The translations under genes were made by a program, and so were the position numbers. The notes under the pieces were generated by a model, which did no database searches, had not been told where the DNA came from, and worked only from the letters and a program-made list of their open reading frames with translations. This document shows, piece by piece, positions 43,869 through 49,450 of a stretch of DNA of 64,000 nucleotides. The stretch is taken from contig JAXDIO010000154.1 of NCBI GenBank assembly GCA_034663965.1, forward strand, positions 6,872 through 70,871, read 5' to 3'. Source of the stretch: Thermoanaerobaculia bacterium (GTDB lineage Bacteria > Acidobacteriota > Thermoanaerobaculia > Gp7-AA8). Each line of letters starts with the position of its first letter. Position 1 is the stretch's first letter.

Positions 43869-46800
43869 TTATCTGCCGATGATTTGGACGGCCGCCCACA
43901 TACGCGGCGGCGGATCCGGCCGATGGATCCACTCGATCTGTGTTTCGCGCAACGCGTCCGCGGGTGAACGCCGCTGCGCGAGGAAGGTATGAAAGCGGGG
44001 GAAGAATTCGGCTGCGAGCGTGTCATCGATTGGCCACAGCGTGGCGGCGACGCTCGGTACGCCGGCGGTGAGGAACGCACGTGCGACGCTGATGCTCGTC
44101 TGGCCGGGCCGCTGCCGTCCGCGCGCGGTGCCGCAGGCCGCGAGCACTACCGCGCGTGTCCGCGAGAAGCGCATTGCGGCGATCTCCGCCGCCGTCAGTC
44201 TGCGGTCGAAGCCGTCGCCGCGCAACGTGATGAGCGCCGCGTCGTTCGATTGATCCGGAGGGGCGGCGTGACCGACGAAGTGCACGACATCAGCATTCGC
44301 AGCGCGCGTTTCAAATTCGGATCGGTCGCCGCCGTGTGGAAAGAAATCCACAGCTCCGCCGTATGCCGCGACGACGGCATCCGCTTCCCGCTGCGCCGAC
44401 GACAGCGTTTCTGCCCCTGACGTCGTTGCCCCTTCCATCAGCAGCAGCCGCGTGCTTTTCGCCGGAGTGTCCGCCGACCTGGTGCCGAGCGTCCATGCGG
44501 CGCTCGGTGCGGAGACGACGGCATGATTCTCCAGGAAGAAGTGGCCGCGCCTATCGACGAGTGCGCCGAACGGCACGGCGTCGAGGATCGTATCGGGAAC
44601 GAACACCACCTTTGCGGCTGTATGGATTTTTGCCTCAACAGGACCGATGAGGTCCTGATACAGGCGCGACGCGGTGCGGCGCAATTGAGCGGAGTTATTG
44701 GTCGAAGCGGCGGTCACCACCGCGTCGGAAGCCAGGACCAGTGCGTCGCGCGAGACCAGCCGCTCGACGGATTGAACGCCCTTCTCATCGATGAGGAAAA
44801 TGATCAGTCGGTCGGCAAGCGTCGCGTACTCGATCACAACATAGCCGTGCTCCGCGATAGGATGGCTCAGCGGTGTGACGTGGTCTGCGGCGCTGATGCG
44901 CGAACGCTCCGCGTATGAGAAGGCGCCGTTCACGTCGCCTCGGCGTGATGCAAGCGAAATCGCTTCTTCGTAGAGTTCGGCCGCCACCGCGAACGTGGCA
45001 AAGCCATCATCCGCGGTGCCCACTGCGCGGCGTTGCGCTTCGATCTCGCGAATGGCCTCCTCGAAATCGGCCGAAGCTTCGTCGGTTCGTTTCACGGCAG
45101 CGAAGGCTCGCCCGCGTTGGAGCAGCAACTCCGGGAGAAACATCCGCCGGCCCTTCGCGCGGTGAAAGTCGATTGCCTGTGTCAGCAGGGGCAGCGCTTC
45201 TGCACGGTTCTGAACGAGCAACGCCTGCACGGCCAGCGAGTCCGCCTCGACACGCTCGCGGCTGGCGCGATCGTTAATGAGGTGTATGAACCCGGCGGCA
45301 TGGTGGAGATCAGCGCCGGCGGCCCCGCGGTCGCCAATCCGCGCTTCGACGCGAGCGCGGTCAAGCAAGGTCTCCGCCTGACCGAGGTTGTCATTGACAC
45401 CGCCCATTGCTTCGAGGCGGAGGCCGAGGAGGGATACGGTTACGGGCCAATCGCGATTGAGAGCGGCCCCACGCGCGGCAGCGTCGAGCGCCACGCGGAC
45501 GCGCAACGGCTCGCTTCGTCCGAGCGCCTGCAGCGCGACGACGCGATGACTCCACGCGAGGCGGCTCTCGCCGAGCCGGTCGTAGACCTCGGCCATGATG
45601 TCGCGGACGGAATTCGCGTACGCGAGCTCGCCGAGCCGTTCGAACGATGCAACGCTGCGGGAGAGAACGTCGATCGCATCGCCCCAGCGGCCGGCCGAGG
45701 CACGCGCCAGGCCGAGTTGCCATCCCACCTGTGCCTTGTAGGCGAGATACTCGGCGGGCGCCGAGGCATACAACTGCTCGAGCGTTACTCCCGCTTCGCC
45801 GACGCGTCCCTGATCGTATGCGGTGTTCGCTGCAAAGTAAGCACCGAGTAGCGCGACCGGACTGCCAGCGCGCTCGAAACCGCGACGCGCATCCCCGAAC
45901 ATCGCCTCCGCCGCGGCCGGCTGGCCTGAGCGATAGAGGCGTTGCGCTTCGCGGAATCGCAGGTGAGCCTCGGCGAGAACTGCCTTGCTCGCTGCGTCCG
46001 AGTGATCGATCACATCGATGGCGTCGGCGAGCATTTTCTCTCCGTGCAGCCTGAGGACGTCGGCGAATGCGCGCGCCACGTGGAGATGTCTTTCGGCCGA
46101 TGGGTCGCTGTTCCTTGTCGCTTCCGCCCACCGGCCGAGAATCTCGGTCTCACCCCACACTCGCGCTTCCTGGGGATGTTCCCGCGCCAGCGCACGCGCC
46201 GCGGTGGCATCGTTCTGCAGCGCTGCGTAGCGCTGCATCAACTCTTCGCGAAACCGAGTCAGGGGAGCCAATTCATGAAGATGCTCGCGAGCCTCCTGCG
46301 ACCATTGTGAATTGGCGTCCCGGGACAGGTACAGCTCCCAAGCGGTACGCGCCTGATCGCGCAGCCCGAGGCGTTCGATGATCAGTGCGCGATTGAAAAG
46401 GGCCTCCTGCGATTGAGGGTCGATGCGGAGAGCGGTATCGGCGGCGGCCAACGCCTCCGCGAGGCGTGCGCCGTCGCCTGTCTGCACTGCTGCCGTGTAG
46501 CGAATCGCGGCGAGATCGCTCCACAACTGTGCATCGCCGACCGTGGCCGCAGCCGTGGTGAGTTCGTTATCGGCTTCGCTCACTTCACCTGCAAGCAGAT
46601 GGGCGACGGCGGCGGCGTGACGGCCTTTCGCCGACGTGTCTGGGGCGGTCTCCTTCAGCACCTCGCCGGCGACACCCATCAACTGCAAGCGTTCCGGGTC
46701 CTTCAAATCATTACCACGCGTACTCGAGTGGAGCGGTGCCCATGCGAAGCCGCCCGAAAGCCGGGGTTCAATGTATCGCTCATCCCGCGGCGAGGCCGCG

Positions 46801-48034: not shown

Positions 48035-49450
48035 TCATCCCTGTGCCTTTCTGGAACGATGGGCTGCCGTACTGCTATCCGCCCCGACGAACAGCACAGG
48101 AGTTCCCCACTCCGTGCGCTCTTTACCGGGCGAAAGGTAAAGACGACGCCGTCCTTCCCCAACTGCCTCGTCAATGGAACGGCCGTCGCACAATGCGCCG
48201 TACAGTTCCTCGGCGAACATATTTGCCGCGTCGTCTCTGATCGTCGATTGCATCGCCACTACAGTCGGCACGCCCGCCGCGACCATTGCGCGCGCCGGCG
48301 CTGCAGTGTGTGAGGACGCAATGCCTCGTCCACCGTGACAGCAGTTTAATATCACCGTCGACAGAGGACCGTAGCTTCGCAGAAGTAGTCCCAACTCGTC
48401 TCCGCCGACGCGATGCACGTGCCTCGCACCGTCTTCCATGAGCAGGGCGCTGGTACCCGTGGATGGATTGTGCGTGCCGTGACCGATGAAGTGCCAGACG
48501 TGGAACGGACGGGAGGTATCAGCCGCAGCTCGCAGCAGACGACGAAGCGTTTCAAGCCGGCCGTCGGGCGCGAAATGGAGCTCCACCAACCCCAGCACGA
48601 CCAGTGTCCCCAAGGCGGCTTCAAGCGCGGCTCGCTCGCTTCCGGTATCGAGGTTCTCCATACCTTGCGGCGAGCTGACCGTGACGAGCACACGCAGCGG
48701 CAACGTGAACTCCGCTACCGGCGGTGGAGCGGCTTTGAGCTGGACCGCGCGAGCGAGCGACGTCCCGCGGCGCAACGCAACGAACTCGCGGCCATCGTGC
48801 AACAGTTCCCAACGCTCGCTTGCAAGCGGGCCGGCGTCATCGAGCAGCAGCTGGTAACGAACGGCCGTGCCGGGCGCTACATCCAACACGTCCTGGGCGG
48901 CGGAGGAGAGCAGCGCCTGATAAAGCCGGTGGCCGTACTCAAGAACGGAGGCGTCGGACGGCAACAAACGGAATGCATCGGCACCATTTGGGGAGATCGG
49001 AATGTCGACCGCGGCATACGCGCGTGGAGGTGCGATTTGGATCAGATCGAACGCTGAGGCGTGCTGATTGAGGAGGGCCGAAATCGCAGCGGTAATCGAC
49101 TCCACCTCGTCCGCGAAGGACTTACGCCACCGCATTTCCATAATCTCCGCCGCGTCCCTTCTCGTGCAACGGACGAGTGGCTCAAGATCAGCAGCGAGCA
49201 ATTCGATGCGACGCGCTGAAGGCGACGCACCGCGACGATCGAGCACAGCCGACACGCCGCGGATCCACCGGCGGAAGCGTTCGTATTCTGCAGCGGCGGC
49301 AAGCTTCACCTGAGGCGCGAGCTCCAGAACGCTGCTGATTCTTCTGCCGTCATTCACGCGTGTGAATCGTGCTCCTGCAGCTCGGGCGAGCGTGTCGCTC
49401 GCGAGCCGAGCCAGTACCGCATCCAGCTTCGAGCAAACAGGTGCCGTCAT
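48035..49450 (-). CDS. CHAT-domain (caspase-like) protease
   Basis: 471 aa. The C-terminal CHAT core has a His/Cys dyad (PFHVWHFIGHGTHNP ... TVILNCCHGGRG). Confidence 0.75.
   Translation of the reverse strand: MTAPVCSKLDAVLARLASDTLARAAGARFTRVNDGRRISSVLELAPQVKLAAAAEYERFRRWIRGVSAVLDRRGASPSARRIELLAADLEPLVRCTRRDAAEIMEMRWRKSFADEVESITAAISALLNQHASAFDLIQIAPPRAYAAVDIPISPNGADAFRLLPSDASVLEYGHRLYQALLSSAAQDVLDVAPGTAVRYQLLLDDAGPLASERWELLHDGREFVALRRGTSLARAVQLKAAPPPVAEFTLPLRVLVTVSSPQGMENLDTGSERAALEAALGTLVVLGLVELHFAPDGRLETLRRLLRAAADTSRPFHVWHFIGHGTHNPSTGTSALLMEDGARHVHRVGGDELGLLLRSYGPLSTVILNCCHGGRGIASSHTAAPARAMVAAGVPTVVAMQSTIRDDAANMFAEELYGALCDGRSIDEAVGEGRRRLYLSPGKERTEWGTPVLFVGADSSTAAHRSRKAQG

Follow-up and report, generated by a model that had tools for sequence, protein, structure and literature searches.

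DdvA of Myxococcus xanthus, an anti-sigma factor that spans the membrane, combines a CHCC zinc domain with a periplasmic TPR-CHAT region and controls a CBASS/CRISPR island (PMC11506125, PMC6061681). The promoters of this defence island used by its partner sigma factor, DdvS, have the form GTAA-N16-CGT (PMC6061681). In the proposed model, a signal induces CHAT autoproteolysis in trans, cleavage by RseP follows, and the sigma factor is released; the catalytic dyad of DdvA adopts a resting geometry and the active site is incomplete, so that autoproteolysis is still a hypothesis (PMC11506125). Further marks of the DdvA type are a CHAT active site lacking the three-helix motif and assembly into an arrowhead-shaped dimer. 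DdvA-DdvS is the only characterised system with a transmembrane TPR-CHAT anti-sigma factor. The DdvA paper reported such pairs as confined to Myxococcota and one Comamonas, with only a subset of them located near known defence systems. Here we describe a related locus in a 64,000-nucleotide stretch of DNA (hereafter, the window) from a metagenome-assembled genome of Thermoanaerobaculia (phylum Acidobacteriota). It encodes a sigma-70-family factor and a 1081-aa homologue of DdvA, and probably represents a DdvS/DdvA-type transmembrane switch through which envelope sensing exerts master control over two flanking defence-like operons.

The module is located on the minus strand. The sigma gene (278 aa; 47111..47947) immediately precedes the anti-sigma gene (1081 aa; 43869..47114), and the stop codon of the former and the start codon of the latter share four nucleotides as ATGA (47111-47114). 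The third gene of the sigma operon (242 aa; 43122..43850) starts 18 nt past the anti-sigma stop codon. A gene for a stand-alone CHAT protein of 471 aa (48035..49450), recognised from the open reading frame (ORF) list and a Pfam CHAT match, is located before the sigma gene. The ORFs of 1081, 278 and 471 aa and the overlap of the sigma and anti-sigma genes had been reported in the first-pass annotation and were confirmed. Identical deposited entries (QOI58_1665 and QOI58_1663) are annotated as hypothetical proteins.

A DdvA homologue in Acidobacteriota

A phmmer comparison of the 1081-aa protein with the DdvA chain of PDB entry 8ROT gave a colinear match (E=6e-8), and the profile of its family matched DdvA (PDB 8rot_B) with E=2.9e-30. 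The best Foldseek matches of the AlphaFold2 (AF2) model were the DdvA structures 8rw5 and 8rot_A (E=5e-18, TM-scores 0.54/0.64, ~1030 columns), which were ranked above separase and Csx29. The two proteins are ~17% identical, and the N-terminal sequence HLADCEKC of DdvA aligns with HLRDCEDC of the window protein. The transmembrane (TM) helix and the following linker occupy W71-L92 and residues 95-143 in DdvA and residues 72-94 and 95-139 in the window protein, and the catalytic dyads H862/C907 and H949/C994 have the same 45-residue spacing. Sequence comparison and the structural model clearly identify the protein as a DdvA homologue with the same domain order.

The AF2 model (pLDDT 85.6, pTM 0.79) consists of a helical bundle (aa 11-53), the TM helix (aa 72-94), the linker (aa 95-139), an alpha-solenoid (aa 140-740) and an alpha/beta CHAT domain (aa 758-1080). 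The zinc-binding anti-sigma domain (ZASD; aa 8-53, 46956..47093, minus strand) is a three-helix bundle delineated by Pfam, ligand alignment and the AF2 model. Pfam zf-HC2 matched aa 14-41 with E=2e-4 and 21.8 bits, 0.4 bits short of the cut-off of 22.2. Residues C8/H33/C37/C40 form the CHCC pattern of zinc anti-sigma domains. Conservation was assessed in an alignment of 39 homologues with 40-71% identity, in which the ligands were retained in 27-29 of 39 sequences; gap rows numbered 8-12 per N-terminal position, and the remaining departures, seen at three ligand positions out of four, were one or two substitutions. The domain is predicted to bind zinc through these residues. Hydropathy analysis revealed one hydrophobic helix in the entire protein (~aa 69-94), and together with the AF2 model it places the single predicted TM helix at aa 72-94 (46833..46901, minus strand). 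Thus, both the zf-HC2 anti-sigma motif and the TM helix noted in the first-pass annotation were found. The TPR-like repeats also noted there scored below their Pfam cut-offs in the query, yet the AF2 model contains the solenoid at aa 140-740. The CHAT caspase-like domain (aa 758-1080; 43875..44843, minus strand) was recognised by Pfam CHAT at aa 813-1080 (E=2e-52) and by alignment. Its predicted His-Cys dyad passed the alignment check: H949 (codon 44268-44270) and C994 (44133-44135) are invariant across the 39 homologues.

Between the TM helix and the solenoid, the linker carries a juxtamembrane motif, R113...E116-P117-R118-L-S-G121-G122-F-x-W125-A-P127 (46731..46787, minus strand), which was found by alignment and is confidently modelled by AF2. 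R113 and R118 are invariant, and E116, P117, G121, G122, F123, W125, A126 and P127 are present in at least 90% of sequences. The motif is located roughly where the DdvA linker faces the CHAT active site of the partner protomer, and by analogy one may speculate that it is a cleavage or docking site.

The first-pass annotation had proposed proteolytic signal transduction. The architecture and homology of the protein do match DdvA-DdvS, for which such signalling has been proposed; proteolysis itself can be suggested here by analogy with that system. Alternatively, the periplasmic CHAT domain could be an effector or processing protease acting on other envelope proteins, or a scaffold, and the sigma factor could be released via a site-1 protease or by oxidation of the zinc site. 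The hypothetical status of DdvA autoproteolysis and the resting, incomplete active site of DdvA are consistent with this possibility, as are relatives in which the TPR-CHAT part is split from a short ZASD-TM protein, so that the substrate chain can be separate. Against it stand the invariance of the His/Cys dyad in the family, the near-invariant linker motif beside the membrane and the predominance of the fusion, the commonest arrangement (36/84 loci). We consider this alternative rather unlikely.

Similarity to DdvA-DdvS extends to the locus. In both cases the sigma gene is immediately upstream of the anti-sigma gene, a gene without an assigned function follows, and the setting is a defence-like island. 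The neighbours include a CHAT-SAVED effector and a C25 peptidase in M. xanthus and a CHAT protein and a Nal1-like protease in the window. The islands differ in composition: CBASS/CRISPR genes adjoin DdvA-DdvS, whereas TIR, ZorAB-like, STAND, CHAT and FtsZl1-vWA-like genes are found in the window. The phylum of the host, Acidobacteriota, is also different. Homologues of the third gene (242 aa) were found in the window's clade alone, also when a Myxococcus counterpart was sought.

Two other described proteases resemble the 1081-aa protein. Craspase (Cas7-11/gRAMP, Csx29, Csx30, RpoE) likewise links a TPR-CHAT protease to ECF-type (extracytoplasmic function) sigma control in a defence context, and Csx29 is similar in fold to the window protein (Foldseek E ~1e-11 to 1e-12). 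However, Csx29 resides in the cytoplasm, is guided by RNA and carries no fused anti-sigma domain, and no CRISPR genes are present at the window locus. Separase shares the solenoid and CHAT fold (Foldseek E ~5e-13), and some members of the window family match Pfam Peptidase_C50, but its biology is unrelated: it is cytoplasmic or nuclear, monomeric, and has neither a membrane anchor nor an anti-sigma domain.

An atypical sigma factor

The 278-aa protein consists of sigma2 (aa ~4-80), a helical insert of ~55 aa (aa ~84-140), a linker, sigma4 (aa 160-232) and a disordered tail. In its AF2 model (pLDDT 78), four additional helices occupy aa 88-136, and both the linker and the tail past residue 245 are disordered. 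More than 800 homologues of ~280 aa were found in which the first 27 residues are conserved; therefore, the 278-aa start is correct and the 251-aa NCBI call is short.

TIGR02937 matched the protein with E=1.3e-8, its score of 34.6 bits being below the cut-off of 42.9, and no Pfam Sigma70_r2 or r4 match was obtained for the query at E<=0.01. Among 33 homologues, Sigma70_r4 / r4_2 matched 29-30 (r4_2 = 30), Sigma70_r2 matched 7, Sigma70_ECF matched 2, and Sigma70_r3 matched none. The best PDB matches of the family profile were to sigma4 of SigF and FliA, and the whole protein is colinear with FliA. The DdvS chain of 8ROT was matched at E<=1 neither by the single sequence nor by the family profile. 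Foldseek listed the three-domain factors sigmaS, sigmaB, sigma32 and sigma28 ahead of ECF sigma factors, all with weak E-values. Identification of the insert with sigma3 was nevertheless not supported: a profile of the isolated insert found no PDB sigma factor, in line with the missing Sigma70_r3 matches.

The first-pass annotation had called this protein an ECF sigma factor. Its membership in the sigma-70 family stands, while the canonical ECF assignment does not: both the TIGR02937 score and the size and insert depart from the ECF model and from the two-domain layout of ~170-200 aa. Judging by its sequence, the window sigma factor has an ECF-like setting, yet it is not a canonical ECF sigma factor and not an orthologue of DdvS, which belongs to another family.

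Distribution of the sigma/anti-sigma pairs

A scan with the sigma profile, using one genome per species, revealed 212 loci. Most of them belong to Thermoanaerobaculia, and the others to Vicinamibacterales, Holophagales, Solibacteraceae, Gemmatimonadaceae and Longimicrobiales; several genomes contain more than one sigma copy. The window proteins were mapped onto 84 loci found through the sigma factor alone (related loci are numbered L001 onwards). A fused anti-sigma-TPR-CHAT gene is located directly downstream of the sigma gene in 36 of the 84 loci. In 7/84 (L015, L023, L033, L045, L046, L058 and L061) a short ZASD-TM protein accompanies a separate, TM-anchored TPR-CHAT protein. A TPR-CHAT gene is found nearby in 13/84 (five downstream but non-adjacent, eight on the opposite strand), and a short anti-sigma gene alone, with no CHAT gene in the flank, in 4/84. 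No partner was detected in 12/84, and another 12/84 loci are truncated by a contig end. The overlap of the sigma and anti-sigma genes recurs in L001, L002, L003, L091, L092 and L093.

An exhaustive HMMER search with the anti-sigma family against 1.84 billion representatives of 50%-identity clusters returned 29,381 proteins at E<=1e-30, the top 150 all being below 1e-212. Among the 130 top matches of at least 900 aa, 69 contain HxxxCxxC in the first 70 residues and 110 contain a TM-like segment. The split loci and the representatives lacking HxxxCxxC indicate that the protease sensor and the sigma-binding module can be separate chains.

By these sequence searches, pairing of such a sigma factor with a DdvA-like protein is common in Acidobacteriota and Gemmatimonadota, contrary to the narrow published range. 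The sensor architecture, reported as almost confined to Myxococcota, is thus abundant in soil Acidobacteriota and Gemmatimonadota, where it is coupled to a different sigma lineage. What appears to be new here is the phylum for a system of the DdvA kind, the lineage of the sigma factor and the predicted regulon.

A candidate ECF-type promoter motif

The check for an ECF-type promoter advised in the first-pass annotation was positive, although the gap preceding the sigma gene is not where the motif was found. Copies stand ahead of each flanking operon and within the 3' end of the sigma gene itself. The motif has the form GGAA(T/A)-N10-CGTCCGTC(T/C)A; the -35 element is AAAAA instead in the window's clade. 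The upstream regions of genes for CHAT471-like and Nal1-like proteins in relatives have CGTCCGTCTA in common, and in sister clades, in which a divergent gene starts upstream of the sigma gene, the block located there is the reverse complement of CGTCCGTCTA. Across the loci, the core CGTCCGTC[TC]A occurs 49 times versus 9.7 expected. The motif is typically located 25-45 nt ahead of a start codon with a ribosome-binding site, and its sequence is that of an ECF-type -35/-10 pair. In geometry, the GGAA-N15-CGT(CTA) of the window family is one base off the DdvS promoter GTAA-N16-CGT.

A 28-nt position weight matrix (PWM) was trained on 19 sites taken from other loci only, with the window sites excluded. 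Shuffling gave 0.005 matches of >=20 bits and 0.65 matches of >=12 bits per window. In the window, the PWM found ACAAAAAAGGACGAGCTGCGTCCGTCTA at 35713..35740 on the plus strand (26.4 bits); the TIR gene, which has the ribosome-binding site GGAGGG, starts after a further 30 nt with the ATG at 35771. On the minus strand, CCAAAATATCGCAACGCGCGTCCGTCCA at 61246..61273 (24.2 bits) is located 36 nt ahead of the start codon (ATG, 61209) of the Nal1-like gene. The third promoter-like motif, TGGAAAAAC-N-CGTCCGTCGG (47158..47185, minus strand; 13.5 bits), is contained in the 3' end of the sigma coding sequence and precedes the anti-sigma ATG by 44 nt. In 1.42 Mb of loci, 78 matches scored at least 14 bits; 51 of them were at a sigma gene and 27 elsewhere. 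Of the former, 36 shared a fixed place within the 3' end of the gene, 13 were in divergent orientation within 400 nt upstream, and two were upstream on the same strand. In relatives, the motif also precedes genes for CHAT471-like proteins (L006, L008), Nal1-like proteins (L001 twice, L093) and a NACHT NTPase (L006).

The sigma-internal site coincides with the conserved peptide LDFxL(G/K)N...RPS, which is encoded at 47140-47200 in the window and at the corresponding place of 46 further sigma genes. CGT is the Arg codon of this peptide in 44 of the 47 genes, versus 10% elsewhere in the same genes (P ~1e-40). For Ser, AGY is never used, against a background of 32%. For Gly, five codons upstream of the Arg, GGA is used in 23/23 cases versus 17% (P ~1e-18). 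The residue at the -35 position varies (G, K, E or R), while the bases GGA, AAA, GAA or CGA are retained. This codon bias (CGT, GGA, TCN) indicates that conservation acts on the DNA. The simplest reading of these sequences is that the element is an embedded promoter for the anti-sigma gene with dual coding. Such a promoter would be a clean example of dual coding and would account for the conservation of the disordered sigma tail. DdvA-DdvS differs from the window family in this respect.

The classical pairs RsiW-SigW, RseA-SigE and ChrR-SigE share with the window pair a zinc anti-sigma domain, a single-pass anti-sigma protein and co-transcription; their promoters are of the -35 GGAA and -10 CGTC type, like the candidate motif of the window family. 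They differ in that the window sensor is a protease of ~1000 aa, the sigma factor has an insert and is below the ECF cut-off, and the promoter-like element preceding the anti-sigma gene lies within the sigma gene.

The GGAA-N10-CGTCCGTC motif might also be read by a different sigma factor, for example a general ECF factor of Acidobacteriota, with the targets of the local sigma factor located elsewhere. The tie between motif and sigma factor is an indirect one, the sigma gene of the window's clade has no copy before it, GGAA/CGTC is a generic ECF flavour, and the window sigma factor scores below the ECF cut-off. The fixed site at the sigma/anti-sigma junction in 36 loci of several orders and two phyla, with a divergent site in 13 more, speaks against such an assignment: co-inheritance of the motif with the sigma gene is expected of a cognate promoter and is hard to explain for a foreign regulator. 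We regard a different sigma factor as quite improbable. Since the motif is inherited with every sigma/anti-sigma pair in two phyla, it is most likely the cognate promoter of the pair.

Other candidate motifs were rejected. The generic GGAAC-N15-18-CGT occurs 22 times in the window versus 12.9 expected and in none of the relevant gaps; two seemingly intergenic sites at 58015-58259 fall within the ORF of a small TM protein. The DdvS-type GTAA-N16-CGT occurs four times versus 2.6 expected, with no relevant site. GTGTRG-N16-CACTCC of the sister clades was considered as the sigma factor's own promoter and is specific to sigma upstream regions (10/12 matches); because the flank of the divergent GGAAT -35, in reverse complement, makes up its upstream half, it was not retained as an independent promoter. 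The single match to it in the window is at chance level.

Proposed regulatory circuit

In the proposed switch, the 278-aa sigma factor would be translated together with the anti-sigma protein and held at the membrane by the cytoplasmic CHCC domain, as homology and gene coupling suggest. The periplasmic TPR-CHAT region would be the sensor, in which a periplasmic cue turns on the His949/Cys994 protease, as in the DdvA model, itself unproven. The protease would probably clip the juxtamembrane linker of the partner protomer, and site-2 and cytoplasmic proteases would then free the sigma factor. Free sigma, presumed to recognise GGAA(T/A)-N10-CGTCCGTC(T/C)A, would direct RNA polymerase to this motif. 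From the site before the TIR gene, the operon of TIR, ZorA-like, ZorB-like and nSTAND3 genes would be induced. From the site before the Nal1-like gene, a 13-gene array including the sigma gene would be transcribed, which would create positive feedback because the sigma operon ends this minus-strand array. The site inside the sigma gene would replenish the anti-sigma protein and thereby provide negative feedback. The stand-alone CHAT protein would be an induced cytoplasmic protease effector and not part of the sensor.

Several points weigh against this scheme. For the binding of sigma and of zinc, protease activity, the site of cleavage, topology, dimer formation and the starts of transcription, the scheme relies on prediction. 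The window sigma factor shares with DdvS the sigma-70 fold alone and has an insert, and it may therefore be held in another manner. In the 87-bp gap ahead of the sigma gene, a different conserved block is found in place of the motif. The score of the sigma-internal site in the window (13.5 bits) is within the range where shuffled windows give 0.65 matches each (>=12 bits), and the Nal1-like site is orthologous to training sites and so not fully independent. Several paralogous pairs with similar motifs occur per genome, which poses a problem of cross-talk, and another ECF-type sigma factor of the same genome could read the motif. Matches to PADLOC and Pfam models suggest a defence role of the neighbouring operons, but they are weak to moderate, those of TIR and of the 226-aa ZorB-like protein (p226) alone being strong. 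Finally, the distant members L003 and L004 are found among housekeeping genes.

The last observation also agrees with the possibility that this is an ordinary envelope-stress or signalling pair regulating itself and a few adjacent genes, and that the defence-like setting is a coincidence of a variable island. The family is large, with several paralogues per genome, a typical feature of signal-transduction families that have expanded; according to the DdvA paper, DdvA-like pairs lie near known defence systems in only a subset of cases; and the other half of the window is filled with type VI secretion system (T6SS) genes, making it a mixed island. Still, two sites of at least 24 bits are located exactly before both flanking operons, the convergent nSTAND3 operon remains beside the module in 7 relatives with ~50% sigma identity, and the motif precedes CHAT, NACHT and Nal1-like genes in relatives. 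An ordinary pair of this kind appears unlikely.

A broader interpretation of the DdvS/DdvA-type switch can be advanced tentatively, with somewhat less than even confidence. The sigma factors with the sigma2-insert-sigma4 layout, their DdvA-like partners and the promoter embedded in the last ~20 codons of each sigma gene may define a large undescribed family of Acidobacteriota and Gemmatimonadota, which in the window co-induces two convergent operons as a gated defence island. The candidate promoter is sharply defined and predicts that an envelope sensor gates the transcription of ZorAB-like, TIR, STAND and CHAT genes. If this is true, the system would offer a tractable route to the periplasmic signal sensed by TPR-CHAT anti-sigma proteins and would represent a transcriptionally gated defence island of new composition, with genes for a ZorAB-like motor, TIR, STAND and protease proteins.

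Flanking operons

The plus-strand operon, convergent to the sigma operon (35771..43069), encodes a TIR protein, a ZorA-like protein of 413 aa, a ZorB-like protein of 226 aa, proteins of 313 and 425 aa and an nSTAND3 NTPase of 841 aa. In Pfam and PADLOC searches with the window proteins, TIR was matched with E=1e-13, nSTAND3 with E=2e-6 and ZorB-like p226 with E=4e-27; ZorA-like matches were weaker (E=1e-6 to 1e-7). Two MotA-like/MotB-like pairs in the window match the ZorA/ZorB models of Zorya systems, but no PADLOC match to ZorC, D, E, F or G was found among the genes of the neighbouring operons, as would be expected in Zorya types I-III. Because it fits no PADLOC Zorya type, the TIR/ZorAB-like/nSTAND3 operon may be an undescribed ZorAB-based system, judging from its gene content. 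Pfam searches at E<=1 gave no matches for the N-termini of the 471-aa and nSTAND3 proteins or for the 242-, 313- and 524-aa proteins.

On the minus strand, the genes from the Nal1_C-like protease to the ZorB-like protein (49458..61209) are co-directional with the module and separated by gaps of at most 61 nt, so that co-transcription is predicted. The array begins with the Nal1_C-like protease, a 73-aa protein, an ion-channel protein of 503 aa (Ion_trans_2) and a small TM protein. These are followed by an FtsZ/tubulin-like protein of ~440 aa with GGTG loops and a protein of 1025 aa with an Hsp70/actin-like fold. Next come a 524-aa protein with a TM segment and a DSSGS motif resembling a metal-ion-dependent adhesion site (MIDAS), and ZorA-like (638 aa) and ZorB-like (224 aa) proteins. 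With the CHAT 471-aa, sigma, anti-sigma and 242-aa genes at its end, the array comprises 13 genes, all gaps being at most 87 nt. The region 49458-59991, in which the ion-channel gene also lies, is similar to the FtsZl1-vWA-OmpA gene set (Makarova and Koonin 2010) in having GGTG-loop, MIDAS-like TM and OmpA-like proteins; the FtsZl1 and vWA assignments were made from motifs alone, Pfam giving no matches. The listed 586-aa ORF of this region (56641-58401, minus strand) begins too early. At 57960-58496 (minus strand), another frame encodes a multi-TM protein of ~178 aa with an ATGA overlap with the ~440-aa gene, whose true start is likely ~57963. The revised starts of the ~178-aa TM and ~440-aa proteins match the orthologues in L002 and L091.

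The Nal1_C-like protein (60053-61209, minus strand) is a predicted cytoplasmic trypsin-fold serine protease with the motifs NNHV...GDSGS. Its gene is found near the module in 12 loci (L001, L006-L011, L021, L087, L090, L092 and L093), and a gene for a protein of 72-75 aa adjoins it in the window (73 aa) and in the three loci whose gene calls include one (L001, L090 and L092). The protease gene is often preceded by a promoter motif of its own.

The whole window arrangement is repeated in L002 (64% sigma identity) and L091 (58%), where the genes from the small TM protein through the 242-aa protein face those for nSTAND3, the 425-aa, 313-aa, ZorB-like and ZorA-like proteins. Homologues of the 313-aa, 425-aa and nSTAND3 proteins are encoded by the module in 7 relatives, the nSTAND3-operon neighbourhood being retained at ~50% sigma identity, and ZorB-like homologues in 5. 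Other conflict genes surround the modules of relatives in L006 (1507-6999), L001 (3766-6273 and 14890-16809) and L093 (4008-8318). They encode a 1830-aa NACHT NTPase, TCAD7-CHAT and other CHAT proteins, a giant CHAT-AAA_16-TPR protein, and dynamin-like and patatin proteins. The ECF-type motif stands before some of these genes in L006 and L093.

The stand-alone CHAT protein and the third gene

Pfam CHAT matched the 471-aa protein with E=3.4e-24. The domain is preceded by a 170-aa N-terminal region without an assignment, and the chain ends after it. The dyad H324 (FIGHG; codon 48479-48481) and C371 (LNxC; 48338-48340) is invariant in nine orthologues. No TM helix or signal peptide was found in this protein, which is predicted from its sequence to be a stand-alone cytoplasmic CHAT protease. 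The PADLOC SAVED_CHAT model matched aa 239-429 (E=8e-12), that is, within the CHAT region alone; therefore, the protein is not a CHAT-SAVED effector of CBASS. PADLOC found no CD-NTase among the window neighbours.

The first-pass annotation had listed this second CHAT protein together with the sigma factor and the fused anti-sigma protein. Its length and its position before the sigma gene are as described there, whereas comparison of loci shows it to be an accessory of one clade, outside the core of the family. The gene precedes the sigma gene in nine related loci, and a tenth, L011, carries a more distant copy on the opposite strand.

The 471-aa protein may instead be an effector of the upstream ZorAB-like/FtsZl1-vWA-like set, linked to the sigma factor by a shared transcript alone. 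Its gene starts only 7 nt past the ZorB-like gene and is separated from the sigma gene by 87 nt containing a conserved block of its own, and the protein has no TM helix or signal peptide. On the other hand, in L001 and L005-L009, none of which contains ZorAB-like genes, the sigma gene is immediately preceded by a CHAT471-like gene, which in L006 and L008 has its own promoter motif. Its presence in these loci indicates that the CHAT471 gene travels with the sigma module rather than with ZorAB. The effector of a ZorAB-like set is a serious contender, albeit the less probable one, and we prefer the view that the 471-aa protein is an effector induced by the sigma factor.

The 242-aa gene follows the anti-sigma gene in 15 related loci. 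Its product has no Pfam domain, TM helix or signal peptide; the C-terminal sequence C-x-N-T-G-C-C is invariant in the alignment. The family comprises 190 hypothetical homologues, of which those with a named source all belong to Thermoanaerobaculia.

The gap before the sigma gene

A conserved block, AGTGGTGTATTCTCGCGACT, is located upstream of the sigma gene at 48011..48030 on the minus strand. It is present once in each of the 11 clade loci (the window and 10 relatives), where the 87-bp gap contains it in the form AGTGGTGTAT(T/G)CTC; its exact 9-mer occurs once in the window. The GGTGTATTCT block may be a basal promoter supporting basal expression of the sigma gene. A role of GTGTATTCT as a shared promoter was rejected, since a PWM gave one copy per locus and none before other genes.

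The 7-bp palindrome at 48002-48020 pointed out in the first-pass annotation exists (TCTCGCG-N5-CGCGAGA, 15 nt after the stop codon of the 471-aa gene and without a T-tract), but it is weak and not retained as a palindrome in most relatives. There are 69 inverted repeats of this kind in the window and 0.09 are expected in the 87-bp gap; by itself, the palindrome is therefore only mildly unusual. Its left arm overlaps the conserved block. A conserved hairpin was rejected, as complementarity is missing in some relatives and the loop ranges from 2 to 19 nt. A terminator was likewise rejected: a sigma-70/terminator scan of 42900-50300 was at chance level. Rfam gave no match in the same region at E<=1. 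Complementarity of the type TTCTC...GAGA(A) downstream of the GGTGTAT block recurs in the window (48002-48030), L005, L006, L007 and L011. One apparent compensatory change was observed, TCTCGCG/CGCGAGA in the window versus GCTCGC/GCGAGC in L006 and L007; the pattern is too patchy for a structure.

Other genes of the window

No PWM promoter sites were found in the T6SS region (125-29000), and a link of T6SS to the sigma module was rejected, as the flanks of relatives contain no T6SS genes. The gene set of this region includes TssC/VipB (4773-6299), TssF (7301-9115), ClpV (10114-12702) and VgrG (26851-28908). A 1495-aa TIG-repeat protein with a PLD domain is encoded within it at 22331-26818.

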